Shown: in pieces, positions 18,727-42,409 of the stretch
How positions within the stretch are numbered: the stretch's first letter is position 1
Layout: each line of letters begins with the position of its first letter
The notes under the pieces: model-generated
Database searches by the model: none
What the model saw: only the letters and a program-made list of their open reading frames with translations
What the model was told of the DNA's origin: nothing
Source: Candidatus Falkowbacteria bacterium LH_S3
GTDB lineage: Bacteria > Patescibacteriota > Patescibacteriia > Patescibacteriales > JAGXOH01
Direction of reading: 5' to 3'
DNA length: 45,903 nt
Assembly (NCBI GenBank): GCA_023659985.1
Contig: JAGXOH010000002.1
Span: 1-45,903 of the forward strand
Translations under genes and position numbers: made by a program

Positions 18727-18820
18727 TTCAATCGCAAATATAAAGCTTTTTAAAAACGTAATATTACGTTTTTTATTTTTTGTCATAGCAACATGATAAT
18801 TTTATGGCCCGCGCAATATA

Positions 18821-19150: not shown

Positions 19151-19287
19151 TGTAAATTATAAATTATAAATTAATGGTAATCAGAGAATAAATCCAAAAA
19201 TTAATTAAAATTCATCGGTATGAAATTTCTAAATTGCCTTGACAACGTTTTTTATTTTTTAGTTAATTGGTATATAATGGATTATGA

Positions 19288-19659: not shown

Positions 19660-19662
19660 TAT

Positions 19663-19917
19663 ATGATTAAATTTAAATATTACCCTAGATATATGGTTGT
19701 GGAAGTATTGCGTTTATATCAAAAGACGTTTTCCTTTGATTATGGTATTTTTAAGTACCTTTTTCCTTACGGACATTGCCGTTTTCATCCTACTTGTTCA
19801 CAATATGCTATTCAGGCCATTACTAAATACGGAATTATTAAAGGAGGCATAAAGGCTTGTTGGCGAGTTTTGAGATGCAATCCGTTCAATAAAGGCGGTT
19901 TTGATCCTCTTAAATAA
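19663..19917 (+). CDS. yidD: Membrane protein insertion efficiency factor YidD
   Basis: [44 protein letters not shown]. Confidence 0.9.
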
Positions 19918-19940
19918 TTAAATGATTTAATTCAATTATT

Positions 19941-20716: not shown

Positions 20717-22150
20717 GTGAAAAAGTTATGATAATGTCCTAGTACGGTGAAGTAGAAATGTCCTACCTAATGTGATAAGGTATTTAGTTATTTACTAAAT
20801 ATTTAAATCACTATGGATAATTACATCACTATGTCACAAAAAGAAATCAACAAATATGATATTATTAAAAAATTAATAAATAAAGAGTTGAATGGTACAG
20901 AGGTTTCTAAAATTCTAAATCTATCCACTCGTCAAATCAGACGGTTAAAAAGAAAAGTACAAGACCAGGGAGCTAAAGGATTAGTCCATGGTAGTCGAGG
21001 GAGGTCTAGTAATAGAGCTACGCCAGAAAAAGAAAAAGACAAAATAATCAAACTATTACATAAACACTATCATGATTTCGGACCGTTGCTTGCTTCAGAA
21101 AAACTAGAGAGAATACACAGCATAAAAAAAGACAAAACAACTATTAGGGCTATTATGATCAGTGAGGGTCTCTGGAAGCCAAAACGAAAGAAAAAAGAAA
21201 CTCATAGATCATGGCGACAAAGAAAAGCAAGTAGCGGTGAGTTGTTGCAATATGATGGTTCATATGAATACTGGTTTGAAAATAGAGGTAAAAAATGTTG
21301 TCTACTATCCTGTGTAGACGATGCTACGGGCAAAGTATATGCCAAGTTCGATGAACATGAAGGCGTAGAGCCGACATTTAACTTCTGGCGTGATTATATC
21401 ACAGAGAACGGCAAGCCATATGCTATATATGTTGATAGATTCAGTACATATTCAATGAATCACAAGCTAGCCAGTGAAAACGAAGATACTCTAACTCAGT
21501 TCCAAAGAGCAATGGAAACAGATTTAAATGTAGAAATAATTCATGCTAAAAGCCCAGAGGCCAAAGGAAGAGTGGAGGTATTATTTAAAACATTACAAGA
21601 CAGATTAATTAAGGAACTTAGACTACAAAATATATCAACACCAGACAAAGCAAATGAATTTCTGAAAAATATATACCTAGAAGAGTTTAATCAAATGTTT
21701 AATGTCGAACCCAGAACAAATGCAAATTTACATAAAAAATTAATCAAACAAGAATTAGACAAATTAGATTCAATATTTTCTAGACAATATCAACGAGTAG
21801 TTAGGAATGATTTTACTATCCATCACAAAAAAGAACGGTACCAGTTATTAAAAGAACAGTCAGTAACGATATGCAAAAAAGATAAAATAACCGTGGAAGA
21901 GCGGATGGATAACACTATTCAGTTTCGTCTCAGGGGAAAGTATTTAAACTATTCAGTATTACCAGAAAATCAACAAAAAGTATCTCAAGAGAAAATATGG
22001 GTATTACCGAAAACAACTGCACATACACCGCCATCTAATCACCCATGGCGATAAGCAGCTAAATTAGAATATCTTAAAAAATTAACAAAAATGTCCAGGT
22101 AGGACATTTCTAAATCACCCAAAGTAGGACATTTCTACTTCACCTTTACA
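20717..22150 (+). mobile_element. ISNCY (IS1202-group)-like insertion sequence at the yidC stop codon
   Basis: A single transposase ORF. Perfect 21-bp inverted repeat ggtgaagtagaaatgtcctac (20746-20766) / gtaggacatttctacttcacc (22124-22144). The extra subterminal motif aatgtcc / ggacatt is repeated. Flanked by a 17-bp direct repeat gagatagtaaaatagat at 20700-20716 and 22151-22167. Confidence 0.75.
20813..22054 (+). CDS. ISNCY/IS1202-group DDE (rve-type) transposase
   Basis: N-terminal HTH LNGTEVSKILNLSTRQIRRLKRKVQDQGAKGLVHGSRGRSSNR. DDE region YDGSYEYWF ... IYVDRFSTY ... SPEAKGRVEVLFKTLQDRLIKELRLQNIST. Confidence 0.85.
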   Translation: MDNYITMSQKEINKYDIIKKLINKELNGTEVSKILNLSTRQIRRLKRKVQDQGAKGLVHGSRGRSSNRATPEKEKDKIIKLLHKHYHDFGPLLASEKLERIHSIKKDKTTIRAIMISEGLWKPKRKKKETHRSWRQRKASSGELLQYDGSYEYWFENRGKKCCLLSCVDDATGKVYAKFDEHEGVEPTFNFWRDYITENGKPYAIYVDRFSTYSMNHKLASENEDTLTQFQRAMETDLNVEIIHAKSPEAKGRVEVLFKTLQDRLIKELRLQNISTPDKANEFLKNIYLEEFNQMFNVEPRTNANLHKKLIKQELDKLDSIFSRQYQRVVRNDFTIHHKKERYQLLKEQSVTICKKDKITVEERMDNTIQFRLRGKYLNYSVLPENQQKVSQEKIWVLPKTTAHTPPSNHPWR

Positions 22151-24633: not shown

Positions 24634-25047
24634 TTATGGGGGATAGCTTTGTCCCCCTCCGTTTGTGGTGCTATGATGCAGAGCTCCAAGCACGAAAGAG
24701 GTTATGGCATAAGCCATCATTATTATTACTAAACCTATTATTGCGTGTTTAATTTGGCTTTTTGCTTTATTTAGTTCTTCTTCATTGCCTCCAGCTGTCA
24801 TCCATCTATAACCGGCAATTAAAATTAAAATTATGAAAATAATACCCAGTAAAGACAGAATCGCCCCTATTGCGGTAGCTATTATCCCACCAACAGTGGT
24901 ATCATTGAAGCCGGATTTGGTTTTAAAACTTTCGGTTTGGTTATTAAGCTCGGTAGTGTTAATAAGATTGGCTTGGGCACAAGAAAGAAATCCGCCTGAA
25001 GCAAGAACGATTGCAGTTATAAGAAAAAATTTTTTAAGAAAATTCAT
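24634..25047 (-). CDS. VirB2/TrbC-like pilin paralogue 6 (Patescibacteria T4SS-pilin-like)
   Basis: Signal peptide, N/T-rich variable segment, then GGIIATAIGAILSLLGIIFIILILIAGYRWMTAGGNEEELNKAKSQIKHAIIGLVIIMMAYAITSF. Confidence 0.7.
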   Translation of the reverse strand: MNFLKKFFLITAIVLASGGFLSCAQANLINTTELNNQTESFKTKSGFNDTTVGGIIATAIGAILSLLGIIFIILILIAGYRWMTAGGNEEELNKAKSQIKHAIIGLVIIMMAYAITSFVLGALHHSTTNGGGQSYPP

Positions 25048-25066
25048 ATTAATTTTTGCTAAAATA

Positions 25067-25513
25067 TTAACTTCCTAAAATCAGGTTTTCTAAAATAAAA
25101 GTCCATATAGCGTAAGAGCCGACTACTATGATAAGACCGATTATAGCATGCCTGATTATACTTAGACCTTCTTTTGCCCTTTCTTCATTGCCTGAAGCTG
25201 TCATATATTTAGTTCCTCCTGTAATAGTTAAGATAATAAATATAATTCCAAGTAAGCTTAAAAATCCCTTGACAGCAGTACCTAAAATTTCTGAAACAGT
25301 GGTTTGGTCATTTTTCTTATAACCTCCTTCTGAGCCAGAACCGACATTTTCCAATCTTGTCGAGGCAGAGGGCATACTTTCCGAGGCAGGGGACTCATCG
25401 TTGCTCCCCCTGGCTGTATTAATAAACAAAAAAGATGGAGCAATTAAAACCCCTACTAAAGATACTAAAACAAGAAAATGTTTCAAGTGTTGTTTCTTTT
25501 CAAGAATAGACAT
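25067..25513 (-). CDS. VirB2/TrbC-like pilin paralogue 5
   Basis: Signal peptide, S/E/G-rich variable segment, then LGTAVKGFLSLLGIIFIILTITGGTKYMTASGNEERAKEGLSIIRHAIIGLIIVVGSYAIWTF. Confidence 0.7.
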   Translation of the reverse strand: MSILEKKQHLKHFLVLVSLVGVLIAPSFLFINTARGSNDESPASESMPSASTRLENVGSGSEGGYKKNDQTTVSEILGTAVKGFLSLLGIIFIILTITGGTKYMTASGNEERAKEGLSIIRHAIIGLIIVVGSYAIWTFILENLILGS

Positions 25514-25527
25514 GTGGTTTAATATTT

Positions 25528-25989
25528 TTATTTTAAAGTGTTCTCTCCTAGTTGTTCTATGACTAACACGCTAATAGCATAGGCGGCAACTACTATAATA
25601 AGGCCGATGGTGGCTTCAGTTAATATTTTTTTGGCTTCGTCTACTTTTTCTTCATTGCCTCTGGCTATCATCCATAAAAATCCGCCATAGATCATGAGTA
25701 TAAGGAAAATAACACCTAAAAAAGATAAAGCGGCTTGAATAGCAGTTTGTATAATTGGATTAGGGGATGTTTTGGAAGTATCATAACCAGCCTTTTTGGC
25801 AGCGCTATCAAGAGGGTCATTGTTACTTCCATCACTTATTTGAAAGGCATTTTGGAGACTATCTCCCCCATTATCTCCCCCATTATCTGCATTAACAGAA
25901 TTCAAAGGAAAAATTAAAGATATTGCTATAATAGTAATAAGAATCGGGAATAAAAAAATTTTTTTTGGGAGTTGGTGCTTTGAAAACAT
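25528..25989 (-). CDS. VirB2/TrbC-like pilin paralogue 4
   Basis: Signal peptide, DNGGDNGGDS repeat-containing variable segment, then ALSFLGVIFLILMIYGGFLWMIARGNEEKVDEAKKILTEATIGLIIVVAAYAISVL. Confidence 0.7.
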   Translation of the reverse strand: MFSKHQLPKKIFLFPILITIIAISLIFPLNSVNADNGGDNGGDSLQNAFQISDGSNNDPLDSAAKKAGYDTSKTSPNPIIQTAIQAALSFLGVIFLILMIYGGFLWMIARGNEEKVDEAKKILTEATIGLIIVVAAYAISVLVIEQLGENTLK

Positions 25990-25999
25990 ATATTTAATA

Positions 26000-26389
26000 T
26001 TAAATAAAATTCTTTCCTATAAAAGCTGTTATAGCATAGGCGGCAACTACTATAACAAGGCCGACAATGGCACCAGTTAATATTTCTTTGGCTTTGCCTA
26101 TTTTTTCTTGATTTCCAGCAGCTGTCATCCATAAAAATCCACCATAGATCGTGAGCAACAGAAAAATAACTCCTATAAAAGATAAAATTGCGCCAATTAT
26201 AGAACCTATTGCTCCTGGAAGTTTTCCTGGGCTGAATATTTCCATCTCTTCATGACCAGTACTTTTTGCAGTAGATTTTATTCCGCTGTCTTTTGTAAAA
26301 TCAAAACTTTGAGCAAAAAGAGGCATTACCAATAAAATACCTGTTAGTGTTGAGAAACACATTAAGCGAAGTTTTGCCTTTAAAAACAT
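26000..26389 (-). CDS. VirB2/TrbC-like pilin paralogue 3
   Basis: ILSFIGVIFLLLTIYGGFLWMTAAGNQEKIGKAKEILTGAIVGLVIVVAAYAITAF. Confidence 0.7.
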   Translation of the reverse strand: MFLKAKLRLMCFSTLTGILLVMPLFAQSFDFTKDSGIKSTAKSTGHEEMEIFSPGKLPGAIGSIIGAILSFIGVIFLLLTIYGGFLWMTAAGNQEKIGKAKEILTGAIVGLVIVVAAYAITAFIGKNFI

Positions 26390-26429
26390 AGGATTATCTG
26401 TCTTTTAAAATATTAGTCAAACAACAACT

Positions 26430-26837
26430 TTAGGTAAGTGCGCCTCCGATAAAGGAAGTAATAGCATAGGCAGCTAAAACTATAATAAGGCCGATGATGG
26501 CTGATATTATTAAATTTTTAGCTTTACTGATTTGGGTCTCATTGCCGGCAGCTGTCATCCAGGTGATACCTCCGTAAATTATTAATACAAAAAATAATAT
26601 TCCGATAAAAGATAAGGCTGCACCCACTACGGTTCCTATTATATCAGGCACCTCCTGGTTTTTAAAGTGAGCAAGATCTCCGAAAGCTTTTTGGGCTGCC
26701 TTGTCCAAGCCGTGATTTTCGTTTCCACCGTCTTTAGCACTTTCTTGAGCTTTTGATATTAAAGGAGAAAAGCTAAAAATTACCGCAAATAAAGGTAGGA
26801 GCGATTTTATTTTTTTAACAAAATAATCCGTGTTCAT
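26430..26837 (-). CDS. VirB2/TrbC-like pilin paralogue 2
   Basis: ALSFIGILFFVLIIYGGITWMTAAGNETQISKAKNLIISAIIGLIIVLAAYAITSF. Confidence 0.7.
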   Translation of the reverse strand: MNTDYFVKKIKSLLPLFAVIFSFSPLISKAQESAKDGGNENHGLDKAAQKAFGDLAHFKNQEVPDIIGTVVGAALSFIGILFFVLIIYGGITWMTAAGNETQISKAKNLIISAIIGLIIVLAAYAITSFIGGALT

Positions 26838-26850
26838 ACTATGTTTTTAT

Positions 26851-26916
26851 CAGCTCTTTTCACTGCCGGAACAGGTAAAATTTATCTGCTCAGGCAGTGA
26901 AGCCTTGTTTTCCCCC
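26851..26916 (-). other. Two adjacent strong stem-loops in the 131-nt spacer between pilin paralogues 1 and 2
   Basis: cactgcc...ggcagtg (26851-26889, extendable) and the perfect 10-bp stem gtgaagcctt/aaggcttcac (26887-26916). Neither strand has a following U-run. Confidence 0.5.
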
Positions 26917-26968
26917 AAGGCTTCACCAATTTTACTAACAGTAATTAGACTAGAGGTGATAGCATTCA

Positions 26969-27373
26969 TTAGGTGGTGGTAGCATTCATTAATTGACTGA
27001 GCACGAATTTGGCTATACCCCAGGCCGCTAAAATGATAACCAAGCCAACGACTCCGGCTATAATAATTTGTTTAGCTTCTCCAACTTTCTCGTCATTGCC
27101 GGCTGCTGTCATCCATTTAAACCCTCCGATTAAAATGATAACAACCGCTAAGATAGCCAAAAAACCTAAGGCAATATTGATAATACTGGCGATAATATCT
27201 CTGGGATCCCTTTCACCCAATTCGGTTGCTTCTCCATAGGGCATACCGACATCATTCTCGTTTAGGGCCAGTGCCTCCGGAGTTTGTCCTGTCGGTATAG
27301 TGGCTAATACCGGAGTGATAATCAGCAAAGCCATTGCTAAGCCTATTAGTTTTTTTACCATTTTTTCTTTCAT
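26969..27373 (-). CDS. VirB2/TrbC-like pilin paralogue 1 (first gene of the array)
   Basis: ALGFLAILAVVIILIGGFKWMTAAGNDEKVGEAKQIIIAGVVGLVIILAAWGIAKF. Confidence 0.7.
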   Translation of the reverse strand: MKEKMVKKLIGLAMALLIITPVLATIPTGQTPEALALNENDVGMPYGEATELGERDPRDIIASIINIALGFLAILAVVIILIGGFKWMTAAGNDEKVGEAKQIIIAGVVGLVIILAAWGIAKFVLSQLMNATTT

Positions 27374-31979: not shown

Positions 31980-32056
31980 GGGCCGTTAGCTCAGTTGGCT
32001 AGAGCACCTGCTTTGCACGCAGGAGGTCAAGGGTTCGAGCCCCTTACGGTCCACCA
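31980..32056 (+). tRNA. tRNA-Ala(TGC), CCA encoded
   Basis: Acceptor GGGCCGT/ACGGTCC with G3:U70. Anticodon stem CCTGC/GCAGG with loop TTTGCAC. T-arm AGGGTTCGAGCCCCT. Confidence 0.9.
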
Positions 32057-32101
32057 ATCGCAATTTTCGCCGTTTTGGGAAAGGATTGTCTCATGGTTTT
32101 G
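32051..32101 (+). repeat. Direct repeat copy 1 (last 6 nt of tRNA-Ala plus 45 nt of 3' flank)
   Basis: ccaccaatcgcaattttcgccgttttgggaaaggattgtctcatggttttg. Copy 2 at 33787-33837 differs at 2 of 51 positions by hand alignment. Confidence 0.85.
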
Positions 32102-32215
32102 AGCTTTAAGCTTTGACATTTAAACTTTGAAATCCAAAATCCAAAATCCTAATGCCAAATGAAATCCAAAATCCAAATGTTGTCAAACTTAAAGGCTGAA
32201 TTAACGCTTGAAATG
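32102..32215. repeat. Short copy of the low-complexity palindromic repeat family
   Basis: agctttaagctttgacatttaaactttg followed by aaatccaaaatccaaaatcctaatgccaaatgaaatccaaaatccaaatgttgtcaaacttaaag. The final 27 nt (32168-32194) are repeated at 33877-33903. Confidence 0.7.
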
Positions 32216-33026: not shown

Positions 33027-33614
33027 ATGATTGATTTCAAAAATATAAAAGCAATTGCGTTCGACTTCTGGGGAGTATTTGCCGAAATGAATCCACCCAT
33101 GTACGAATATATGAAGCAACACAACATTTTACTGGAGAAATATTCGGAAAAAATTCACGAGCTTATTGTAGCGTATGACCTTAACAATCTTACCGAACAA
33201 CAGTTCCTGAAAGAATGTTCGAAAATAATAGGACTTGAAATTCCATATCCATTATGCCGTTATATATATCATGAAGACGTTTTGAACGAAAATTTAATCG
33301 CCGTTGTTAAAAAATTAAAAGAAAGATTTAAGATTGCTCTATTGTCAAATAACAACAAAGAATATTGCGAGGAGTATTTGTTTCGGCCTGGGCTCGATAA
33401 GTTTTTTGATATTATGGTTATTTCATACCAAGTTGGCTATCGCAAGCCGGCTCCGGAAATTTATCAGATTTTAATCAAAAAGCTAAATCTAAGACCAGAA
33501 GAAATTTTATTCGTTGATGACGACCCAACGAAACTTCCAGCTGCGGAGGCACAAGGAATTAAAACGCTTGTTTACAAATGCGGAGAAACAGATAGAATAT
33601 TGTTGAGTTTGTAA
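33027..33614 (+). CDS. HAD-superfamily hydrolase (subfamily IA-like)
   Basis: Motif I-like AIAFDFWGVF (second Asp replaced by Trp), motif II ALLSNN, motif III GYRKP, and motif IV LFVDDD. Confidence 0.8.
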   Translation: MIDFKNIKAIAFDFWGVFAEMNPPMYEYMKQHNILLEKYSEKIHELIVAYDLNNLTEQQFLKECSKIIGLEIPYPLCRYIYHEDVLNENLIAVVKKLKERFKIALLSNNNKEYCEEYLFRPGLDKFFDIMVISYQVGYRKPAPEIYQILIKKLNLRPEEILFVDDDPTKLPAAEAQGIKTLVYKCGETDRILLSL

Positions 33615-33786
33615 CGGCGCGCCCGCGAAGCGGGTCGAAAGCGAGGGCGGGCAAAAATTCCTTCCCCTCAACCCCCTTCCTTTTTGTCCGCCCGAGCGTT
33701 CAGTTTCGGTTCTGCCGTCCCGCCAAAGGCAGGAGCAATCAGTCGGGATTTTGTTCAAAATGAGTTCTGACTTTTTCCAACAAACA

Positions 33787-33837
33787 CCACCAATCGCAAT
33801 TTTCGCCGTTTTGGGAAAGGATTGCCTCGTGGTTTTG
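33787..33837 (+). repeat. Direct repeat copy 2 of the tRNA-Ala 3' end/flank
   Basis: ccaccaatcgcaattttcgccgttttgggaaaggattgcctcgtggttttg. Confidence 0.85.
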
Positions 33838-33873: not shown

Positions 33874-34173
33874 CATAAAATCCAAATGTTGTCAAACTTA
33901 AAGCTTAAAATTAAAAGCTAAAAATTACAACTTAAATCTTAAAATTAAAAGTTCAAATACTTAATAAAATCCTAATGTCAAATGTCAAAGCTCAAATGTC
34001 AAATGAAGATCAAATGACTAAATGTCATATTTAATGTCAAAACTTAAAGCTAAAAACTAAAAACTACAACTCAAAACTTAAAATTTCTTACTTCTTACTT
34101 CTTACTTTTTATCTCTTATTTCTTAACAATGTTTTAATTCAGTTTTAAATTTTGACTTTTGGTTTTGCGTTTT
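33874..34173. repeat. Full copy of the long palindromic low-complexity repeat (A-rich arm, TCTTAC centre, short T-rich arm)
   Basis: aaaatccaaatgttgtcaaacttaaagcttaaaattaaaagc ... aaaacttaaagctaaaaactaaaaactacaactcaaaac, then tttcttacttcttacttcttactttttatctcttatttcttaacaatgttttaattca, then gttttaaattttgacttttggttttgcgttttg. Confidence 0.85.
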
Positions 34174-34280
34174 GAACGGCGATTCCCTTTCCCCTTGAGT
34201 CCCTTTTCCTCGCCGCAGCCGCCTTCGCATTGCTCGCCCCGCCATTCGGCGGGGCTCGCTCTTTTTCAAAAAATTCCTTC
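34174..34280 (+). repeat. GC-rich inverted repeat, left copy (IR-L), bounding the hydrogenase cassette
   Basis: gaacggcgattccctttccccttgagtccc...gccccgccattcggcggggc...ctttttcaaaaaattccttc. Its reverse complement matches 37972-38078 with about 5 mismatches in 107 nt by hand alignment. It contains a terminator-like hairpin at 34236-34255 followed by a T-run. Confidence 0.9.
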
Positions 34281-34360
34281 AGGGATTTCTTAATCTATTT
34301 ACTATTTCTTCATTTTTTAATATACTCTAAGAAATAGAGTAAATATTTATTAACTTTTAT

Positions 34361-34597
34361 ATGTGTATTAATATTCCGGGTAAAGTTATTTTAATAAAAG
34401 AGGAAAATGCCAAAATAAAACAAAGGGGGCATTTTCATTGGGTAGACATCTCTTCACTTAAAGATGAGGTTAAAAAAGGAGATTATTTGCTTACTTATCA
34501 AGAGGCAGCAATTAACAAAATCTCTCCAAAAAATGCCAAGGAGATTTTAAGACTAATGGACAGCACAAGTGATGCAGGGGTCAAATGCTCTAATTAA
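34361..34597 (+). CDS. hypC: HypC/HupF-like hydrogenase maturation chaperone
   Basis: N-terminal MCINIPGKV (HypC signature MC[LI]xxPG with Cys2) and C-terminal GDYLLTYQEAAINKISPKNAKEIL (GDxVLVHxGxAI..I-like). The 3' end overlaps the convergent hydrogenase gene by 45 nt. Confidence 0.7.
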   Translation: MCINIPGKVILIKEENAKIKQRGHFHWVDISSLKDEVKKGDYLLTYQEAAINKISPKNAKEILRLMDSTSDAGVKCSN

Positions 34598-36250
34598 TTG
34601 CTCAACTTGCTTTTTTATTTGCAGAGGTGGAACTCCTTCTCTTTTTTTAACCAATTCTTGAGTCTCTTTCTCTAAAGAAGCTAAGTTAATTTGGGTTGGG
34701 GGGATAATATTGTAATCAATTATTTTTCCTTGAGAATCAATCTTTATTTGGTGGAATAGAATACCTCTGGGAGCTTCCAAACATGCACTACCAGAAAGCT
34801 TTTTTGATGGAAGGTTTTCTTTTTCAATTCCTTTTGATTTTTTCAAATCTTTTTCTGATATTTCTTCAATCAAATTTATTGTTTCCTCGAGGAAATGCAA
34901 AATCTCAATTGCTTGGGCTAAATTATTGTTAAAAGGATTATTGAGGTCAGGTTGAAGTTCTTGGAAGGCCTTCTTAGCTTTTGGGTTAAGAACTTTAGAA
35001 AAATGGCTGAGTCGGGATAGGGCTCCAACTTTTATTATTTCTCCTTTTTTTAAAATTCCTAGTTTTGCGGAAGAATCTTTTCTTACAATTTCTTTAATTG
35101 ATTTGGAAAAATTGCCAGGGTAAGAGGGGTAAAAACCTTGGACGGGAGTAATAGTTTCAAGCCGGCTATTAACCTTTAAGCTTGGAGTTTCAAGAGTTGA
35201 GAAAAGCTTTATTAAATCTTGGGCTTCATCAATAACTTCAAAAATTGAATTTCTAATTACTAAAAGCTCATCCATTTTTGGGGGAGTCCTAAATCCTCCT
35301 AATATTGTATTGGAGGGAAAAGCAGAAGATCCGCCAACAACTTCTAATATATTATCGGACACTTTTTTTAAGTTCAGCATTAAATGAAATTCAGCTGGAT
35401 ACTTTTTACAGAGTTCAACTGAGCCTTTAACGCCAGCATAATCTGGCAGAACTAAAAAGAAAAGATGTAAAAGGTGGCTTTTGAGAATTTGACTAGCCAG
35501 AAGAATTTTTCTTAAAATTGTTGTTTCTTGGGAAATTTTAACTCCTAAGGCGTCCTCCAGAGCAGACCAAGAACAAAGATTGTGAGCTACTGGACAAATC
35601 CCACAGATGCGAGAAGTATTAAAAGGAGCTTGTTGAAAATTCTGGCCCAAAACTAATCCCTCAACCAATCTTTCGCTTTCCTCGACTTCAAACTTAACCC
35701 TTTGTTCTTTAAAATTAATCTTTAAAACTCCGTGCCCTTCAATTTTAGCAGTGAAGTCAGGAAGAGTAATTTTTTTGATTTTTGAAACATTTTTTTCTTT
35801 CTTAATTTTTTCTAAAAGTTTTTTAACGAGTTCAATATCCGGCGGGCATCCAGGAATTTTTTCATCTACTCTAATAAATTTTTCTACTGGTTCTAAAAAT
35901 TTTGCCTTTAACTGGTAATTTTTATCATAGATTTTTGCAGCAAGTTTTTTTCTTTTTCCTTTGGATAATTGGGCAAAAATATTTCCAGAAATTGCGCAAG
36001 CTCCTAAAGCGACAACAATTTTTGAAGTTTCTCTAATTTGCTTGAGTAAATTAATCTGCTCTTTGGTAGTAACTGCTCCTTCTATAAAAGCAATGTCAAA
36101 ATTAGCGGGTTTTTTTTCTGAAAGCAATCGCCAATTAGTTATTTCAAAATCCTGAAAGAATTCGAGTAAAAGTTCGTCTAAGGAAAGAAGATGAAATTCA
36201 CATCCCTCACATCCAGTAAGGTCAAAAATTGCGATTTTTGTCTTTGTCAT
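34553..36250 (-). CDS. Single-polypeptide [NiFe]-hydrogenase: NuoB-like small-subunit domain (one proximal-cluster Cys set) fused to the large catalytic subunit
   Basis: Residues 1 to about 150: DLTGCEGCE, ALGACAISGN and IPGCPPD (four Cys of a proximal 4Fe-4S site). Residues about 165-565: KIEGHGVLKI, L1 motif RICGICPVAH, and C-terminal L2 motif DPCITCAVH immediately followed by the stop codon. Confidence 0.85.
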   Translation of the reverse strand: MTKTKIAIFDLTGCEGCEFHLLSLDELLLEFFQDFEITNWRLLSEKKPANFDIAFIEGAVTTKEQINLLKQIRETSKIVVALGACAISGNIFAQLSKGKRKKLAAKIYDKNYQLKAKFLEPVEKFIRVDEKIPGCPPDIELVKKLLEKIKKEKNVSKIKKITLPDFTAKIEGHGVLKINFKEQRVKFEVEESERLVEGLVLGQNFQQAPFNTSRICGICPVAHNLCSWSALEDALGVKISQETTILRKILLASQILKSHLLHLFFLVLPDYAGVKGSVELCKKYPAEFHLMLNLKKVSDNILEVVGGSSAFPSNTILGGFRTPPKMDELLVIRNSIFEVIDEAQDLIKLFSTLETPSLKVNSRLETITPVQGFYPSYPGNFSKSIKEIVRKDSSAKLGILKKGEIIKVGALSRLSHFSKVLNPKAKKAFQELQPDLNNPFNNNLAQAIEILHFLEETINLIEEISEKDLKKSKGIEKENLPSKKLSGSACLEAPRGILFHQIKIDSQGKIIDYNIIPPTQINLASLEKETQELVKKREGVPPLQIKKQVEQLIRAFDPCITCAVH

Positions 36251-36336
36251 ATTATATTCATTTTATCATCTATGGAGATATTTTTCCAACTTTGCTATAC
36301 TAAAAAAAGAAGTGAAATTTAATCGAAAATAAACTT

Positions 36337-37245
36337 ATGAGAAAAGGCTATTTTTTAGTTTTTGTAACCGCCCTTATTTCCGGATTTGCTATTTTTATTA
36401 ATAAATTTGGAGTAAGTGTAGTTAATCCTGATATTTACACTTTCTTGAGAGTCTTAACTGTTGCTATTTTCTTAACCGGCTTGCTTTTATTTTTGAAAGA
36501 TTGGCAGACATTAAAGAATCTAACTGGAAAACAATGGCTCTTATTAATTACAATTGGTTTGGTTGGTGGAAGCATTCCTTTTTTACTCTTCTTCAAAGGG
36601 ATTTCTATAACCAATGCTGCTCAAGGCTCCTTTATTCATAAAACAATGTTTATTTGGGTGGCAATTTTAGCAACTTTGTTTTTGAAGGAAAAAATTGAAA
36701 AAAAATTCTTGTTGGGCGGATTGTTCTTACTCTTGGGGAATCTAATCTTATTAGAAAAATTACCTCATTCATTTAATCAAGGAGATTTATTAGTTTTTTT
36801 AGCTAGTTTGCTTTGGGCTACAGAAAATACGATTTCAAAATATGTCTTAAGAGATTTGGGAGGCAGAATTGTTGCCTGGGCAAGGATGTTTTTCGGCGCT
36901 TTATTTATTTTGATATTCTTGTTGGCAACCAATCAATTTCCTTTAATTTCTGGTCTTACATTAGGACAGATTAATTGGGTTTTAATAACAGCAGTTATTC
37001 TATTTGGTTATGTAATGACCTGGTATAGTGGTTTGAAATTTATCCCGGTTTCTCAGGCAACAGCAATTTTACTCCTTGGTTCCCCGATAACCACTTTATT
37101 GTCATTTATTCAGACGGGGCAAGTAAGTTTTCAAGAAATTTTTTCCGGCTTCTTCATTATTTTAGGAATACTTCTAGTTTTTGGATTAAAAGAAGTGTGG
37201 CGTTTATTCAAGGAATTTAAAAAACTATTTTATGTCTGGACTTAA
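36337..37245 (+). CDS. EamA/DMT-superfamily transporter
   Basis: 302 aa, about 10 TM helices in two similar halves, typical of the EamA duplication. Overlaps the next ORF by 14 nt. Confidence 0.75.
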   Translation: MRKGYFLVFVTALISGFAIFINKFGVSVVNPDIYTFLRVLTVAIFLTGLLLFLKDWQTLKNLTGKQWLLLITIGLVGGSIPFLLFFKGISITNAAQGSFIHKTMFIWVAILATLFLKEKIEKKFLLGGLFLLLGNLILLEKLPHSFNQGDLLVFLASLLWATENTISKYVLRDLGGRIVAWARMFFGALFILIFLLATNQFPLISGLTLGQINWVLITAVILFGYVMTWYSGLKFIPVSQATAILLLGSPITTLLSFIQTGQVSFQEIFSGFFIILGILLVFGLKEVWRLFKEFKKLFYVWT

Positions 37246-37972
37246 GTTGGCAGCTCTTTGTGGATTTTATCCCCACAAACTTGGTTTTTGCGGACTTCAA
37301 GAAAACTCAGCGAAGAAAAACCTTTTGAGTTATCTTTCTGGAGAAAAAATCCCTGAGCAAAAAATCAGAAAAATTTTAGAAACTTTTAAAGGAGCTTTTT
37401 CTTATTATAAATTAATTGCTAAAAGTAATGGAATTGAAGACCCTTTTGATGAAAAAGTAGTTAAGGCTTACTGGTTTGGCAATCAACTTTTAGAAAAGGT
37501 TCCGGTTGATTCCCTAAAAGAGATGATTATCAAAGAGTTCGTCGGACCTGGTTTTCTTTCAAAAAAAATGGCTGAGAAAAAAGCCAGAGAAATCTCTTTT
37601 ACCTCAAAAGCCCATCACAGTTTCCATGTTCTAGTTATAGGTTCGGTGAGTGGTCGGATAATGCTTGAGGGTAAGTTGTTAGATCTTTGTCGGATTGCTT
37701 GGGGAAAGGTAATAGGATACAAAAAGGGGGAAACAGAAAATGCAAATAAGATAATTATTGAATATCACCCCCTCCAAAAGAAAAGAGGGAAATATTCTTT
37801 AGGAGGACCAATCCATAAAATTGTGTTTTGGGAGAAAAAATTTATACCAGAGATTAAAATCGGAGATAAAGTGGCGATTCATTGGAATCATATTGTGCAA
37901 ATTCTTGATGCAAAAGATTTAATCAATCTCAAAAAATACACTCAAATTACAATAGATTCTCTAAATAGTTAG
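37232..37972 (+). CDS. Conserved-looking hypothetical protein with a HypC-like C-terminal segment
   Basis: 246 aa. The N-terminus has LAALCGFYPHKLGFCG. The C-terminus IGDKVAIHWNHIVQILDAKDLINLKKY resembles the HypC GDxVLVHxGFAI..ID..EA motif. Translationally coupled to the EamA gene. Confidence 0.6.
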   Translation: MSGLKLAALCGFYPHKLGFCGLQENSAKKNLLSYLSGEKIPEQKIRKILETFKGAFSYYKLIAKSNGIEDPFDEKVVKAYWFGNQLLEKVPVDSLKEMIIKEFVGPGFLSKKMAEKKAREISFTSKAHHSFHVLVIGSVSGRIMLEGKLLDLCRIAWGKVIGYKKGETENANKIIIEYHPLQKKRGKYSLGGPIHKIVFWEKKFIPEIKIGDKVAIHWNHIVQILDAKDLINLKKYTQITIDSLNS

Positions 37973-38078
37973 AAGGAATTTTTTGAAAAAGAGTGAGCCC
38001 AGCCGAATGGCGGGGCGAGCAATGCGGAGGCGGCTGCGGCGAGGAAAAGGGGTTCAAGGGGAAAGGGAATCGCCGTTC
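37972..38078 (-). repeat. GC-rich inverted repeat, right copy (IR-R)
   Basis: gaaggaattttttgaaaaagagtgagcccagccgaatggcggggcgagcaatgcggaggcggctgcggcgaggaaaaggggttcaaggggaaagggaatcgccgttc. It begins at the last base of the upstream stop codon. Confidence 0.9.
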
Positions 38079-38495
38079 AAAACGCAAAACTCAAAGTTAA
38101 AAACGCAAAACCAAAAATTAAATGAAATCCAAAATCCAAAAAATATGATTGAAACGCAAAACTCAAAGTTAAAAACGCAAAACCAAAAGTCAAAACTTAA
38201 AACCAAAAATTAAATGAAATCCAAAATCCAAATGCCAAATGAAATCCAAATGACAAAGCTCAAATACTTAATAAAATCCAAATGACATACAATAAAATCC
38301 TAATGACAAAATCCTAATGTCAAATGAAGGTCAAATGACTAAATGACAAATGACAAAGCTTAAAACTTAAAGCTCAAAATTTAAAACCAAAAATTAAATG
38401 AAATCCAAAATCCAAATGCCAAATGAAATATAGTTGAAACTCAAAGCTTAAAATTAAAAGCTCAAAATTTAAAACTGAATTAAAATATCGTTCAG
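38079..38495. repeat. Expanded A-rich arm of the palindromic repeat family (inverted relative to 34120-34173)
   Basis: aaaacgcaaaactcaaagttaaaaacgcaaaaccaaaa...aaatgaaatccaaaatccaaa occurs twice in tandem, followed by further AAATCCAAA / CAAATGAC / CTTAAAGCT words. It ends aaaactgaattaaaatatcgtt, the reverse complement of the centre motif aacaatgttttaattcagtttt. Confidence 0.85.
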
Positions 38496-38607
38496 AAATT
38501 TTAAGATTTAAGTGTTACAATTGAAACTAAATAGATATATTGAACGCAAAAAAATTAATAATTTTGTATCATCAACCATACATATATAAAATAATTAGAA
38601 AAAATAG

Positions 38608-38694
38608 GCCCAGGTGGCGGAATTGGTATACGCGCATGGTTTAGGACCATGTGCCTTTATAGGCTTGGGAGTTCAAATCTCCCCTCGCCCACCA
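38608..38694 (+). tRNA. tRNA-Leu(TAG)-like gene with a poorly paired acceptor stem (possible pseudo- or chimeric tRNA)
   Basis: The D-arm, anticodon arm (CATGG-TTTAGGA-CCATG), variable arm (GCCT/AGGC) and T-arm (GGGAG-TTCAAAT-CTCCC) are good, and ACCA is encoded. The 5' strand GCCCAGG against the 3' strand CTCGCCC gives only 3 Watson-Crick pairs plus 1 GU out of 7 in my hand fold. Confidence 0.6.
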
Positions 38695-38777: not shown

Positions 38778-40367
38778 ATGCAGACACAAAAACAATTAGT
38801 TACAATCAAAGAAGCAAGTCGGTGGGCTACTGATCATCTTAACAGAGACGTGAGTGAGTCCAATATTTCGTACTTGATTCAATATGGAAATGTCAGAAAG
38901 TATAATAGTGACAGTTCAACCTTAGTAAATCTTGACGATTTGCAAAAATACTACCAACCCTATCATAGCAAAAGAGAAATAAGTTGGAAAAAACGCCTTG
39001 GAGATGATTTGAATTGGGCTTTATCCTTTGATCATCTTCGAGAAAAAGATACAACAAAACATGTTCATCGCCTTCATCCATACAAAGGGAAATTCATTCC
39101 TCAGCTTGTTCAATATTTTATTGATGATCACACTGATAATTTTAAAAAAAATACATATTTCAAACAAGGAGATATTATCCTTGATCCATTCTCTGGTTCT
39201 GGGACCACTTTAGTTCAAGCAAGTGAAATGGGTATTCATTCAATTGGAATTGATATTTCACAATTCAATTGTATGATTACTGATGCTAAGCTACACAAAT
39301 ATGATTTTGACTCATTAAATCAAGAGATAAAGTGTGTCAAAAAAGCGCTTGCAGATTTTGAATATGATAGCAATGTTTCTACTTTTGAATCAGAGCTTCT
39401 GCAAAAAATGAATAAGTTTAATTATGAGTATTTTCCAAGCCCAGATTTTAAGTATCAAATACAACAAGGAAAGATTGATGAAAATAGTTATTCCAAAAAT
39501 AAAGAAAAAGAATTTTTAAAAATTTATAATAGTTTGGTAAAAAAATATGAGATTGAGCTGAATCATAGAGTCAGCGAGTCGTTCCTAGATGAGTGGTATA
39601 TAAAAAATGTTAGAAAAGAAATTAATTTTACATTTGATTTAATAAAACAAATTAAAGATATCAAGAATAAAAAAGTTCTTGCTGTAATTTTAAGTCGAAC
39701 TATTAGATCTTGTCGGGCCACTACCCATTCTGATCTTGCAACTCTAAAAGAACCCCAACTTACCACTTATTATTGTTTTAAGCATAAGAAAATTTGTAAG
39801 CCACTTTTTTCTATCAAATACTGGTTTGAAAGATACGCAAATGATACGCTAAAACGTCTTAGAGATTTCGAGCGTTTAAGAACACAAGCGCATTTTTCTG
39901 TTTTGTCAACAGATTCTCGCGCAGTAGATATTTTTACAGAAATAAAGAAACGAAATAAAAAATTGTATGAACAATTAAAGAAGCAGAAAATCCGCGGCAT
40001 CTTCACTTCGCCTCCGTATGTAGGACAAATTGATTATCACGAACAACATGCTTACGCCTATGATCTTTTCGGTTTTGATCGTCAAGATAATTTAGAGATT
40101 GGCCCTTTGTATAAAGGACAAGGCAAAGAGGCTCGCAATTCGTATGTTAAGGGAGTTTCAGATGTTTTACTCAATTGCAAAAAATATTTAACGGATAATT
40201 TTGATATATTTCTTGTTGCAAATGATAAATACAATCTTTATCCGATTATAGCAGAGCGATCGGGTATGCAGATTGTTAATAAATTTAAACGGCCAGTTCT
40301 AAATAGAACCGAACGAGATAGGTTGCCCTATTCGGAAATAATTTTTCACATAAAAAATACAAAATAA
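38778..40367 (+). CDS. Type II DNA amino-methyltransferase (SPPY-type, possibly N4-cytosine) with motif I upstream of motif IV
   Basis: AdoMet motif GDIILDPFSGSGTTLVQASEMGIHSIGIDI near residue 130. Catalytic motif IFTSPPYVGQIDY near residue 410. N-terminal HTH-like LVTIKEASRWA. Confidence 0.85.
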   Translation: MQTQKQLVTIKEASRWATDHLNRDVSESNISYLIQYGNVRKYNSDSSTLVNLDDLQKYYQPYHSKREISWKKRLGDDLNWALSFDHLREKDTTKHVHRLHPYKGKFIPQLVQYFIDDHTDNFKKNTYFKQGDIILDPFSGSGTTLVQASEMGIHSIGIDISQFNCMITDAKLHKYDFDSLNQEIKCVKKALADFEYDSNVSTFESELLQKMNKFNYEYFPSPDFKYQIQQGKIDENSYSKNKEKEFLKIYNSLVKKYEIELNHRVSESFLDEWYIKNVRKEINFTFDLIKQIKDIKNKKVLAVILSRTIRSCRATTHSDLATLKEPQLTTYYCFKHKKICKPLFSIKYWFERYANDTLKRLRDFERLRTQAHFSVLSTDSRAVDIFTEIKKRNKKLYEQLKKQKIRGIFTSPPYVGQIDYHEQHAYAYDLFGFDRQDNLEIGPLYKGQGKEARNSYVKGVSDVLLNCKKYLTDNFDIFLVANDKYNLYPIIAERSGMQIVNKFKRPVLNRTERDRLPYSEIIFHIKNTK

Positions 40368-40368
40368 T

Positions 40369-41145
40369 ATGGCACTATCAAAACAGCAGAGTAAAGAAAT
40401 AAAGGAGTATCTCGTTGGAAAAATACGGTGGAAGTTAGATAATTATAATCCTGAAACAAACGCAATGCCTTTCCATTATCGCTTGCTTGGGAAAGATCGC
40501 ATAGCTTTGTTTTCTTTTATTCATTCTGTGAATACTACACTTGGGACTTCAATTTTTGAACAAGTTGGTGCAATGATAGCAAAGCCACATACAAAAAGAA
40601 CAATCGGACAATATAAAGAGTTTGAGGGATTTGTTAGTAGCGAGGTAGTACTTACGATAGACACAATCATGCGGGAATTGCGCGCGGCTTCTCGTAAGCC
40701 AAATAAGCCAAAAGAAACAGAGGAAGTACTTGCTGCGGTTAAAAAAGGAAATCAAGGAAAGAAAATGAAAAAGCGAGTGGATTTATTTGTGAAGATGAAA
40801 GACAACACTGAATACTATTTTGAATTGAAATCTGCCAAGCCGAATATCAATGAATTTACTGGAATTAAAAAACAAATGCTTGATTGGATAGCTATGCGCG
40901 GAAGCCAAAAACCAAACGCAAAAGTAAAAACTATTGTCGCTATTCCATACAATCCATATGAACCCCAGCCATACGAACGATGGACACTTCAAGGACTTTT
41001 TGATTTGAACGAGGAGGTATTAGTAGGTAAAGAATTTTGGGATTTGTTGGGTGGAAAAGATACTTATGAGGATTTATTAAAGGTGTTTGAGCAAGCAGGA
41101 TTAGAGCTTTATGACGAAATTGACCGAAAAAAAAAATTTGAATAA
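40369..41145 (+). CDS. Putative type II restriction endonuclease (PD-(D/E)xK; TdeIII-family-like by recollection)
   Basis: Starts 1 nt after the methyltransferase stop codon. Candidate catalytic triad RVDLFV ... YFELKSAKPN (D ... ExK). The N-terminal HSVNTTLGTSIFEQV segment resembles proteins annotated as the TdeIII family. Confidence 0.55.
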   Translation: MALSKQQSKEIKEYLVGKIRWKLDNYNPETNAMPFHYRLLGKDRIALFSFIHSVNTTLGTSIFEQVGAMIAKPHTKRTIGQYKEFEGFVSSEVVLTIDTIMRELRAASRKPNKPKETEEVLAAVKKGNQGKKMKKRVDLFVKMKDNTEYYFELKSAKPNINEFTGIKKQMLDWIAMRGSQKPNAKVKTIVAIPYNPYEPQPYERWTLQGLFDLNEEVLVGKEFWDLLGGKDTYEDLLKVFEQAGLELYDEIDRKKKFE

Positions 41146-41490
41146 CGGAAATTAGTATTTTGTTATGTATTTTTTATATGCTCTCACAAATAATTCAATT
41201 CGTCTTGATCTAAAATGAAAGTAGGGACTTTCCGACTTTTTAAGAATCTGTTAAAAATATATAGTAGAGATATAATAATACAATTAAAAAGGGGGAACCA
41301 AACTATTATACTTTATTATTGAGATTATGTTTGGATAATCCACGCAAATTTATTGAATATTTATCTAACAAAGGAATCCCATCAGATATAATTAGGTATA
41401 ATTGCAAGCCATTAGACCTGTTGTTTAATAACAAAAATATTGTAAAATAATGATATAAAAAGTGTTTTTAAAAGTTAATTTTTAATTATT

Positions 41491-42409
41491 ATGATGAATA
41501 TTAATAAAATATTAAAGAATAAACGTTTAACATTAGCCTTAACCGGGCTTACTCCACAAGAATTTTTAAATCTGTTATCACCCTTTGCTCAAACTTGGCA
41601 AGATTTAAAGCAAGAAGATTATCAAAAAAATAGAAAACAGAGGAAACGTAAACTAAGTGGAGGCAGAAAGGGCTCTTTAAGAGAGATGGAAGACAAATTA
41701 TTGTTTATTCTATTCTATTATAAATGTTATCCAACTTATGGAGTGCTAAGTTTTCTCTATGGTTTTGATAGAGCGAACGGGTTTAGAAGACAAGAGCAAA
41801 TAACCAAAGTATTGGAAAAAACTCCCCGCAGAAAGCTGTTTTACCTGAAAGGAAATTAGAGAAAGCTGAAGAATTCTTTGAGACGTTCCCCGAGATCAGA
41901 GAGGTATTTATAACTGAAAGACAGACTCAGAGACTCAGAGACTCAAGGACTCAAAACAACAAAGAGATAAATACTCTGGTAAAAAGAAACGACATACTGC
42001 AAAGAATATTGTCATATCAAACAAGAAAAAACAAATATTGTTTTTGAGTAAGACCGAAGGAGAAAGACAACATAGTTTTTCAATGTTAAAAGAACACGCT
42101 CCGCCTCTGGAAAATACCAATCACGATTGAGCAGCTTTAGACTTGGGTTTTAAGGGATATCGCGCTCAGTTTCCTAACCACAAAATATCAATACCAGAGA
42201 GAAAACCTAGAACCAAGGAACTTTGCAAGACTAAAACAGAGCAAAACAAGAGAAAATCAAGAACCAGAGTTTTGGTGGAACACGCTACCCCCGCTGTAAA
42301 AAGATTCAGAATCACAACAGATGTATTTCGTAACAAAGTGAATGGCTCAGATGACAAAGCAATGTCCATTTCCTGCAGACTTTGGAATTACCATCTCTTA
42401 ATGAGTTAA
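41491..42409 (+). pseudogene. Degraded IS5/Harbinger-like (DDE_Tnp_4-type) transposase gene
   Basis: HTH_Tnp_4-like N-terminus (LTLALTGLTPQEFLNLL...KLLFILFYYKCYPTYGVLSFLYG). The middle part YSGKKKRHTAKNIVIS...GERQHSFSML lies in another frame. An in-frame TGA precedes ALDLGFKGY...RVLVEHATPAVKRFRI. Confidence 0.7.

Follow-up and report, generated by a model that had tools for sequence, protein, structure and literature searches.

A hydrogenase gene cassette bounded by long inverted repeats in a Candidatus Falkowbacteria bacterium, and related repeat elements in other Patescibacteria

Results

Gene content of the cassette

The DNA analysed here, referred to throughout as the window, is a stretch of 45,903 nucleotides (nt) on contig JAGXOH010000002.1 (assembly GCA_023659985.1) of Candidatus Falkowbacteria bacterium LH_S3, a member of the Patescibacteria or Candidate Phyla Radiation (CPR). 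Within it lies a block of four genes built around a [NiFe]-hydrogenase and enclosed by a pair of long inverted repeats, which we call the cassette and its arms; the feature is a repeat-bounded gene module. The window is AT-rich (32% GC), and the relatives of its genes are, without exception, CPR metagenome-assembled genomes (MAGs). Over 17.2 kb, both arms included, it is collinear with JAGXPK010000001.1 (GCA_023659395.1) at 99.3% identity. A sequence-only reading of the locus had described the cargo as a HypC-like gene, a fused [NiFe]-hydrogenase, an EamA transporter and a protein of unknown kind; Pfam agrees, and the last of the four is a DUF6390 protein. The cassette and its arms are composed as follows.

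34150..34280, + strand: left arm (IR-L), from repeat search and self-BLAST
34150-34177, + strand: T-rich low-complexity edge of IR-L
34177-34215, + strand: truncated GC hairpin of IR-L, stem CGGCGA/TCGCCG, 27-nt C/T-rich loop
34232-34259, + strand: predicted terminator hairpin of IR-L
34260-34280, + strand: T-run/A-run box of IR-L, TCTTTTTCAAAAAATTCCTTC
34298..34326, + strand: promoter-like site for hypC, TTTACT-17-TATACT, just inside IR-L and kept in relatives
34361..34597, + strand: hypC-like gene, HupF/HypC, 78 amino acids (aa), Pfam
34553..36250, - strand: fused small and large subunit [NiFe]-hydrogenase, Oxidored_q6 and NiFeSe_Hases, 565 aa, Pfam
36337..37245, + strand: EamA-family transporter, 302 aa, Pfam
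37232..37972, + strand: DUF6390 protein, 246 aa, Pfam
37972..38102, - strand: right arm (IR-R), reverse complement of IR-L, from repeat search and self-BLAST
37972-37992, - strand: box of IR-R
about 37993-38020, - strand: weakened predicted terminator hairpin of IR-R
38037-38075, - strand: truncated GC hairpin of IR-R
38076-38102, - strand: A-rich edge of IR-R

The hypC and hydrogenase genes converge, their 3' ends overlapping by 45 nt, and at the other end of the cassette the first base of IR-R is the last base of the DUF6390 stop codon. The small-subunit domain of the hydrogenase is about 150 aa long and fused to the large subunit, hypC is adjacent, and beta and gamma subunits are absent. 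A truncated small subunit, a hypC neighbour and the lack of beta and gamma subunits are the features described for the CPR 'hyd2' hydrogenase (PMC7304191), and the enzyme most likely corresponds to this 3b-related type of Jaffe et al. 2020. The distribution of hyd2 is patchy and incongruent with the species tree; lateral exchange was inferred, and no vehicle for the transfer was named (PMC7304191).

The two arms in the window

The repeat search returned a single outstanding inverted repeat, 34150-34280 against 37972-38102, which is 131 nt long and 94% complementary and has 3691 nt between its copies. In a self-BLAST of the 45.9-kb window the arms pair at E=1e-53; no further copies of the GC-rich arm core were found, and the matches beyond the arms, at 18942-19026 and 1-115, concern the low-complexity flank only. 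The inverted repeats that had been proposed by eye at the cassette ends are therefore reproduced, and the five or so mismatches counted by hand agree with the 102 of 107 positions found identical in the GC-rich core. Besides tRNA genes, stretches of at least 60% GC in the window are confined to the two arms, a third element at 33593-33751 and an intragenic segment at 25351-25421.

The inverted repeat is not an assembly artefact, because IR-L and IR-R differ at 8 positions, both arms are reproduced in the second of the two resolved assemblies (the window and GCA_023659395.1), and three further assemblies break at the arms, in contigs of 3.7-3.9 kb that end in them. Contig JAGXPE010000066.1 of the sister assembly GCA_023659555.1 (L056:1725-1749) is 99.9% identical to the window up to 34177/34178; past this outer edge of IR-L it continues with T-rich satellite in place of the GC-rich arm. 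This branch could represent either length variation of the satellite or an alternative junction.

On the + strand, IR-L carries a predicted intrinsic (Rho-independent) terminator, a GC-rich hairpin followed by a T-run: the predicted stem at 34236-34255 has 8 GC pairs, the tail is TCGCTCTTTT and the calculated energy is -21.5 kcal/mol. The inward-facing terminator-like hairpins proposed earlier are thus present, strongly in IR-L and as a weaker copy in IR-R. Open reading frames (ORFs) of 76 and 50 aa traverse IR-R, and a coding role of the arms was considered and rejected, since the differences between the arms are non-synonymous and 1-nt indels in a related arm (L017) break the frame on reading. 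A known RNA family was likewise rejected: with Rfam 15, only tRNAs exceeded the gathering threshold in the window, and a search of 9 related loci at E up to 1 gave tRNAs and chance matches only.

The cassette in related genomes

Protein-guided scans for the cassette yielded 14 loci from species-representative genomes and 37 from metagenomes. Related or module-bearing loci are labelled by L-numbers (e.g. L029), and KR13 denotes MAG KR13_S3.mb.134. The four genes co-occur across many CPR classes, in two gene orders: that of the window, and one in which hypC-EamA-DUF6390 converges on the hydrogenase gene. DUF6390 accompanies the hydrogenase in most related loci.

DNA alignments to the window were obtained for 14 loci at 80-90% identity. 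In all of them the alignment starts within 34177-34360 and ends within 37975-38075, so that its limits lie at or inside the arms, and in no related genome are flanking genes shared with the window. Arms and cassette together are the unit of homology between genomes, and this same unit is found in differing genomic contexts.

Distinct cassettes in the gene order of the window were counted as complete when both ends lay within the contig (n=11). Bracketing inverted repeats occur in five of these, at the same inner boundaries, and measure 131 nt in the window, 304 nt in L029, where they extend to both contig ends, at least 99 nt in L023, 86 nt in L022 and 30 nt in L006. Where one end is visible, an arm stands upstream of hypC in L016, L017 and L024 and downstream of DUF6390 in L004/L018, with a partial one in L005. 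Many cassette contigs are only 3.3-4.8 kb long, the expected assembly of a unique segment between inverted copies of one repeat, and tRNA genes often adjoin the cassettes. A search for synteny via the exact flanking HAD and methylase proteins gave only short contigs breaking at repeats, and an exact 43-nt arm search of the species-representative genomes gave no match.

Some of the related loci show peculiarities of their own. L004:7412-7561 (also L018) carries, in the hypC promoter region, an insertion of about 150 nt that has 24-nt terminal inverted repeats and resembles a miniature inverted-repeat transposable element. The 621-kb contig JGI1356J14229_10000004 carries two apparently identical hydrogenase loci, L042 (284-302 kb) and L043 (490-508 kb), separated by 206 kb; the pair could be a large duplication or an assembly problem. 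In a Nealsonbacteria contig a high-GC stretch (L006:148-1500) directly adjoins the AT-rich cassette and may be a chimeric join or foreign DNA.

Anatomy and concerted evolution of the arms

Alignment of the arms defines a full form with a fixed order of parts. Outermost lies a conserved module (...TTTTGATAAAATGAGTTCGAGC...ATACTCC), followed inward by the GC stem GTCGGCGGCTGCGGCGA and a loop of 25-29 nt formed by a C/T-rich mirror repeat, TTCCTTTTCCCC AAA CCCCTTTTCCT; inward of the loop come the returning stem and then the terminator hairpin and the box CTCTTTTTCAAAAAATTCCTT. The position of the inner edge is constant: at one end of the cassette the box directly adjoins the stop codon of DUF6390, and at the other it stands about 80 nt ahead of the start of hypC. 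In the window, both arms are missing the module and the stem's outer half. The break falls at the identical base in each, with GCGTTTTGAAC passing into the T-rich satellite GGCGATTCCC on both sides, and only a 6-bp stem is kept.

Over the common core, the two arms of one genome are 95% (window) or 100% (L029, KR13) identical, while arms of different genomes share 60-88%; the two window arms are equally close to the left arm of L017. An extra hairpin is present in both arms of L029 and is unique to that genome. The arms evolve in concert, having been repeatedly copied onto each other, because identity within a genome exceeds that between genomes and derived indels are shared by both arms. Such copying requires recombination between the arms. 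Some copies (L004, L005) have the loop in the opposite orientation to the stems and the remainder of the arm, a kind of hairpin flip known from plastid genomes.

A 50-nt module and a hairpin family shared across the CPR

A degenerate 31-nt pattern of the stem and loop recovered the same arm in KR13. There, a 4.7-kb contig carries inverted copies of a 199-nt arm at both ends, and two longer contigs begin with the arm. The cargo consists of methionyl-tRNA synthetase (MetRS), a short-chain dehydrogenase, an AAA-like protein and a radical-SAM/SPASM protein, with no hydrogenase genes.

With a 22-nt pattern of the outer module, matches were found in at least 120 species-representative genomes, and those listed cover nearly all Patescibacteria classes. 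The module is about 50 nt long with the consensus T.A.GAAT TTTTGATAAAgTAaGTTCGAGC g.agTcgTAaA.ataCtCca, and its conservation ends sharply after CCA. This non-coding block (TCAGGAATTTTTGATAAAGTAGGTTCGAGC..TCGTAAAGATACTCCA) is shared by the genomes of at least 120 Patescibacteria species. Among the matches listed, GC-rich hairpins always precede the module, and one copy in four is no more than 160 nt from the start of its contig. A search of 2.9 million viral contigs did not find the module, on which ground a phage origin was rejected, and Rfam has no match to it. In 12 loci it stands 0-35 nt upstream of co-oriented tRNA genes, and where it extends the arms of relatives it is placed 0-35 nt ahead of outward-facing tRNA genes or the starts of other genes. 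The module may have a promoter-like role or be a recombination site. As a sigma-70 promoter, however, it is not canonical, since T-A-x-A lies 21 nt from TTGATA and the final T is absent.

A hidden Markov model (HMM) of the module, built from 123 copies, gave no matches in the window and none in 1.19 Mb of unrelated control loci, against 10 in 0.48 Mb of hydrogenase loci, 8 of them at 77-364 nt from the cassette end. The module is therefore rare and tied to cassette ends. Two stretches of the window that resembled degenerate modules by eye, 33737-33786 and 38482-38535, were dropped since the HMM found nothing significant there.

The hairpin with the mirror-repeat loop forms a family of about 25 instances. 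Their stems, of which there are at least six different ones, are always complementary and start GGCTCGCGGGC, GCAGGCAGGC or CGGCGA. The homopyrimidine loop (TTTCCTCCCC..CCCCTCC) often lies between A5 and T5 runs (window 33640-33700, L113, L125, L137, L064 and others). RNAalifold predicted no structure for 18 members, since MAFFT did not align their stems in register, and stem complementarity was judged from a list of stems for each sequence.

Two modules co-occur in seven 8-kb loci. In six they face outward as inverted pairs; in the seventh they are direct and share the module only. Besides L029 there are five inverted pairs, with 1.1-4 kb of unrelated genes inside:

L113: class IV aminotransferase and radical-SAM protein
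L125: cysteine-rich secreted proteins
L145: TehB-like methyltransferase
L080: DUF6282
L174: small membrane proteins

With KR13, the arm family therefore brackets unrelated cargo in six other CPR genomes. The inverted pairs at other cargo are 92-100% identical over 107-299 nt, while unpaired copies in one genome show 80% identity or have only the module in common. In five pairs the outer limit of the repeat coincides with that of the module, whereas in L080 and L029 the repeat runs beyond it. By eye, no target-site duplications were seen at the five other sharp-ended pairs, and the outer ends in the window lie in low-complexity DNA.

A large serine recombinase near the element in relatives

A large serine recombinase with Resolvase, Recombinase and Zn_ribbon_recom domains is encoded downstream of the module, on the same strand, in 16 of the approximately 120 module loci listed. 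Eight loci in which module and recombinase gene are both visible have an identical layout: module, a segment of 114-147 nt, recombinase gene, convergent tRNA. From the CTCCA of the module on, the segment is an inverted copy (90-100%) of the 3' coding end of the recombinase gene, which in turn overlaps the 3' end of the tRNA gene (Cys, Thr(cgt), Tyr or Gly(tcc)) by exactly 5 nt. The recombinase gene is in this way placed within inverted repeats of its own, as seen in L060:101-1902 and also in L106, L114, L133, L149, L174 and L104, from several CPR classes. In L104 the module lies directly at the 5' end of the convergent tRNA, and therefore the junction of module and segment at the opposite end resembles the tRNA unit minus the tRNA. 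The gene stands immediately beside the bracketed cassettes of KR13 and L174, and in L005 a copy truncated at codon 297 adjoins the hypC side of the hydrogenase cassette, where the arm is missing.

Searches of the 46-kb window for serine or tyrosine recombinases, with Pfam on 40 of the ORFs of at least 90 aa and by tblastn with the recombinase of the relatives, found none. Transposase-like matches are limited to a DDE_Tnp_4 remnant (about 41491-42130) and an HTH-only protein (20813-22054). The earlier statement that the cassette holds no recombinase or transposase is thereby borne out, and as regards recombinases it extends to the whole window. The repeats of the DDE_Tnp_4 insertion sequence (IS) remnant are unrelated to the arms, and an origin of the arm ends from this resident IS was rejected.

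Outer low-complexity DNA, tRNA genes and other features of the window

The DNA around the cassette contains further repeats and landmarks.

31980..32056, + strand: tRNA-Ala(tgc), left landmark
33617..33786, + strand: third GC-rich element, with homology to the hairpin portion of the CPR-wide element
33787..33837, + strand: direct 96% copy of the tRNA-Ala 3' flank (32051-32101), starting with the terminal CCACCA of the tRNA
34089..34149, + strand: left outer T-rich low-complexity arm with motif AACAATGTTTTAATTCAG, inverted relative to 38457-38499
38103..38499, + strand: right outer low-complexity arm, A-rich and lengthened by tandem units of about 79-92 nt
38607..38694, + strand: tRNA-Leu(tag), right landmark, from ARAGORN and Rfam

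The sequence-only reading had extended the symmetry outward into much longer low-complexity arms. Inverted matches do exist there: 34118-34160 pairs with 38457-38499 (43 nt, 88%, including AACAATGTTTTAATTCAG), 34142-34177 pairs with 38168-38203 (36 nt, 94%), and the right outer arm terminates in the reverse complement of the left motif. However, these arms are partly a dispersed satellite and not part of the unit. The A/T low-complexity family occupies five sites in the window (1-140, 18810-19160, 32100-32190, 33880-34177 and 38076-38500), of which 18810-19160 is a full A-arm/T-arm palindrome with nothing inside, and the A-rich run that precedes the T-rich arm repeats the right arm directly, not in inverted orientation (families D1-D7).

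The tRNA genes had been taken as marks of a genomic island, with a duplicated flank at tRNA-Ala and a malformed tRNA-Leu. Both observations are real, and tRNA genes are frequent neighbours of related cassettes. The tRNA-Leu(tag) scores 37 bits with Rfam, the lowest among the tRNAs of the window; its acceptor stem contains two C.C mismatches and its D stem is 3 bp long. The island itself does not follow: the 51-nt repeat pair, 32051-32101 and 33787-33837, lies 1.7 kb apart and encloses an HTH-HAD gene and a HAD hydrolase gene, not the cassette, and neither an integrase, nor tRNA 3'-end repeats at both borders, nor atypical composition was found in the window.

The second copy of the tRNA-Ala flank directly follows the third GC-rich element, in which a GC stem at 33640-33700 surrounds the mirror-repeat loop AAAAATTCCTTCCCCTCAACCCCCTTCCTTTTT. 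The stretch 33620-33725 matches the hairpin family with a Smith-Waterman score of 71, against 16 +/- 2 for shuffled sequence, and no significant match to the 50-nt module was found downstream of it.

Several other features of the window were noted. In one ORF (143-1855) a rubrerythrin domain is fused to a complete UDP-glucose/GDP-mannose dehydrogenase. An rpmH (L34, read by eye)-rnpA-yidC cluster lies at 18590-20714, and the 350-nt palindrome at 18810-19160, of the same family as the DNA flanking the cassette, falls between rpmH and rnpA. Six or seven genes of similar size form an array of small genes at 24634-27373 and 6080-6544, and all four of those scanned with Pfam match T4SS_pilin. To the right of tRNA-Leu, the mobile-looking stretch 38778-42130 encodes an N6/N4 DNA methylase and a TdeIII-type restriction enzyme, followed by the DDE_Tnp_4 transposase remnant.

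Discussion

A proposed role of the arms as boundary elements of an exchanged gene module

We propose that the arms are paired boundary elements, kept alike by recombination, that mark a gene module exchanged as a unit, a reading to which we give an even chance of being correct. The arms would stop read-in from either flank, insulating the cassette by their inward-facing terminators, and would give the two outward transcripts, hydrogenase to the left and EamA-DUF6390 to the right, the same hairpin-rich 3' end. Gene conversion would keep the arms alike, a crossover between them would flip the 3.7-kb cassette, and arms and cargo may have been passed among CPR lineages as a block, with the large serine recombinase, or homologous recombination via the conserved arms, as candidate agent. 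Block transfer of the cassette fits the published patchy and tree-incongruent distribution of hyd2 (PMC7304191). Both window arms appear to have been cut at the same point, the module being gone and AT-rich satellite following. The window copy is probably a fixed relic rather than an active element, because the outer module is lost and no recombinase lies nearby.

The locus had previously been likened to a composite or foldback mobile unit, or to an invertible segment. The discrete unit in that proposal holds at 14 loci with differing flanks, and the same arm family surrounds unrelated cargo in six other genomes. Mobility and inversion, however, received no direct support: transposition, excision and inversion were not seen as events, and the searches returned no empty site and one orientation.

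A number of observations weigh against the boundary-element reading. Bracketing repeats are absent in 6 of the 11 complete related cassettes, and the arms are therefore dispensable for cassette function. No empty site was found, a search based on cysteinyl-tRNA synthetase (CysRS) having led to relatives at 78% identity or less whose upstream genes are not shared. Look-ups with HypC and DUF6390 gave no alternative junction that would indicate the opposite orientation, and the two fully resolved assemblies, the window and GCA_023659395.1, have the cassette in the same orientation. The terminator hairpin on the - strand of IR-R has one stem mismatch and reaches only -13.5 kcal/mol, and covariation in the terminator hairpin is almost nil (1 compensatory pair). 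The flip of the loop to the G-rich strand in some copies speaks against a strand-specific role of the loop, and in 13 loci the module runs straight into a hairpin and a convergent tRNA. The link between recombinase and element is one of neighbourhood only and is absent in the window. Finally, the composition of the cassette is native. Compared with the rest of the window its GC is 0.336 versus 0.329 and its GC3 (GC at third codon positions) 0.266 versus 0.278, and its codon usage is not atypical, 23% of random gene sets being at least as distant. The comparison of cassette and flanks that had been suggested earlier therefore gave no difference, and a foreign origin on grounds of composition was rejected.

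A broader claim, which we put forward only tentatively, is that the hydrogenase cassette belongs to an undescribed CPR-wide class of cassettes, in which accessory blocks of 1-4.4 kb within inverted elements of 130-300 nt, ending in the 50-nt module with its CTCCA resembling a tRNA 3' end, would be reshuffled or passed on by a dedicated large serine recombinase located at tRNA 3' ends within inverted repeats of its own.

Alternative explanations

The arms and their cargo might instead be a non-autonomous, transposon-like mobile element. Its long, structured terminal inverted repeats would be recognised in trans, with the CPR large serine recombinase as the most plausible enzyme, and the unit would be excised whole and inserted in the vicinity of tRNA genes. 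In favour of this, one discrete homology unit occurs in differing contexts, the other cargos are accessory genes and tRNA genes adjoin many cassettes. Five pairs end exactly at the outer module end, where CTCCA is like a tRNA 3' end, the repeat junctions around the recombinase fall precisely at the CTCCA of the module and of the tRNA, and the recombinase lies beside KR13 and L174 and, as a truncated copy, beside L005. However, inverted sites yield inversion, not excision, and neither target-site duplications, nor an empty site, nor a second copy of the whole unit was seen. The ends are not fixed, since the L080 and L029 repeats overrun the module, one cargo holds the housekeeping gene MetRS, the module is missing from the 2.9 million viral contigs and from the window arms, and the cassette composition is native. 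On balance we regard this explanation as unlikely.

Improbable, in our judgement, is a neutral by-product, in which an intergenic terminator region underwent accidental inverted duplication and was kept similar by occasional gene conversion, with neither a function nor a part in transfer. Such copies would persist since inverted repeats, unlike direct ones, do not delete the DNA between them, and survivorship of this kind predicts the finding that high-identity pairs are seen only in inverted form; the 6 of 11 related cassettes that lack repeats and the native composition point the same way. Chance duplication sits poorly, however, with the same rare element at cassette ends in many lineages and at six other cargos, with the conserved inner boundaries and with the high conservation of the 50-nt module.

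The arms could also be genes for small structured RNAs that end at the terminator, with a C/U-rich loop (CCUCC-like) pairing to Shine-Dalgarno sequences and the two copies providing dosage. They are GC-rich islands in a 32% GC genome, the stems vary between genomes and stay complementary while the loop motif is conserved, the terminator follows on the same strand, and a promoter-like site, TTAACA-17-TAAATT, lies at 34123-34151. Against this, the single-sequence folds of the arms are no better than those of shuffled sequence (z = -1.6 and -0.6), Rfam has no match, the loop is on the G-rich strand in several copies, the window arms keep only the 6-bp stem, and no promoter-like site was found at the equivalent distance on the right arm. 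We consider RNA genes highly improbable.

A programmed invertible segment, flipped as a switch by a site-specific recombinase, for example to couple the cassette to, or uncouple it from, flanking promoters, is the least probable of these explanations, as the cassette has its own promoters and inward terminators on both sides so that a flip changes nothing obvious, the orientation is the same in both resolved assemblies, the window has no recombinase and the arms far exceed known invertase sites in length, even though the repeats are inverted and evolve in concert, the recombinase gene of the relatives lies within inverted repeats of 114-147 nt (90-100%) and the sister-assembly contig branches exactly at the outer edge of IR-L.

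Comparison with known systems

Mobile insertion cassettes (MICs) and composite or foldback transposons are similar to the present element in carrying passengers between inverted terminal repeats with no transposase inside, and in having the same ends on different cargo. Their ends are IS ends, whereas here structured GC-rich arms of 100-300 nt have no matching autonomous IS, no target-site duplication was seen and the only associated enzyme, by neighbourhood, is a serine recombinase. The Hin/Gin/Cin systems and shufflons also have a segment between inverted repeats, and the adjacent serine recombinase of the relatives is enclosed by repeats, as is hin. Their known sites, however, are short (about 26-30 bp), and switching alters either a promoter or a coding end, while here long arms with inward-facing terminators enclose a complete gene set of 3.7 kb and the second orientation was not seen. 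A dedicated recombinase in or beside the segment is absent from the 46-kb window and present in KR13, in L174 and, as a remnant, in L005.

The pdif modules of Acinetobacter plasmids are gene modules bounded by inversely oriented 28-bp XerC/D sites, with no recombinase inside and with many cargos. They resemble the present element in the inverse boundaries around many cargos, and differ in being plasmid-borne, whereas the cassette is chromosomal; no XerC/D site was identified here, though no search aimed at one was made. Repetitive extragenic palindromic (REP) sequences and bacterial interspersed mosaic elements (BIMEs) are likewise intergenic GC-rich hairpins at gene ends, with possible roles as terminators or mRNA stabilisers and with hairpin-mediated rearrangements. 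They are 20-40 nt long, of high copy number and linked to REP-associated tyrosine transposases (RAYTs), whereas the arms are rare composites of 100-300 nt with a mirror-repeat loop and a 50-nt module; in the window there are two copies of more than 100 nt, and none of the stem starts has a GTAG/CGTC head.

Large inverted repeats of plastids also evolve in concert via recombination, and isomerisation of the segment between them is expected, as it is here; they are rRNA-bearing and kilobases long, whereas the arms are 131 nt and non-coding. Islands linked to tRNA genes, with serine or tyrosine integrases, share with the present locus the tRNA neighbours and the duplicated tRNA 3' flank, and the recombinase of the relatives abuts a tRNA 3' end. 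They differ in that the direct repeat here encloses two HAD genes, with no integrase and no compositional signal. In the literature and Rfam we found no description of the arms, the 50-nt module, the mirror-loop hairpin or the recombinase arrangement, in agreement with the earlier statement that no described element has this structure.

Significance for CPR biology

The genomes of CPR bacteria are tiny and their metabolic inventories sparse and uneven, and at this locus the hydrogenase genes form a sharply bounded block. The repeat-bounded structure accounts for the frequent recovery of such cassettes as separate contigs of about 4 kb. If the arms were merely duplicated terminators, they would be a modest case of concerted evolution. 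If they belong to a true system of exchange or rearrangement, the 50-nt element and the mirror-loop hairpin would join the few known CPR-specific non-coding features, and the acquisition of metabolic modules by ultra-small, host-dependent bacteria would become directly testable. If the element represents a true undescribed class of cassettes, it would provide a physical mechanism for the patchy, tree-incongruent occurrence of metabolic genes, hyd2 among them, in Patescibacteria.

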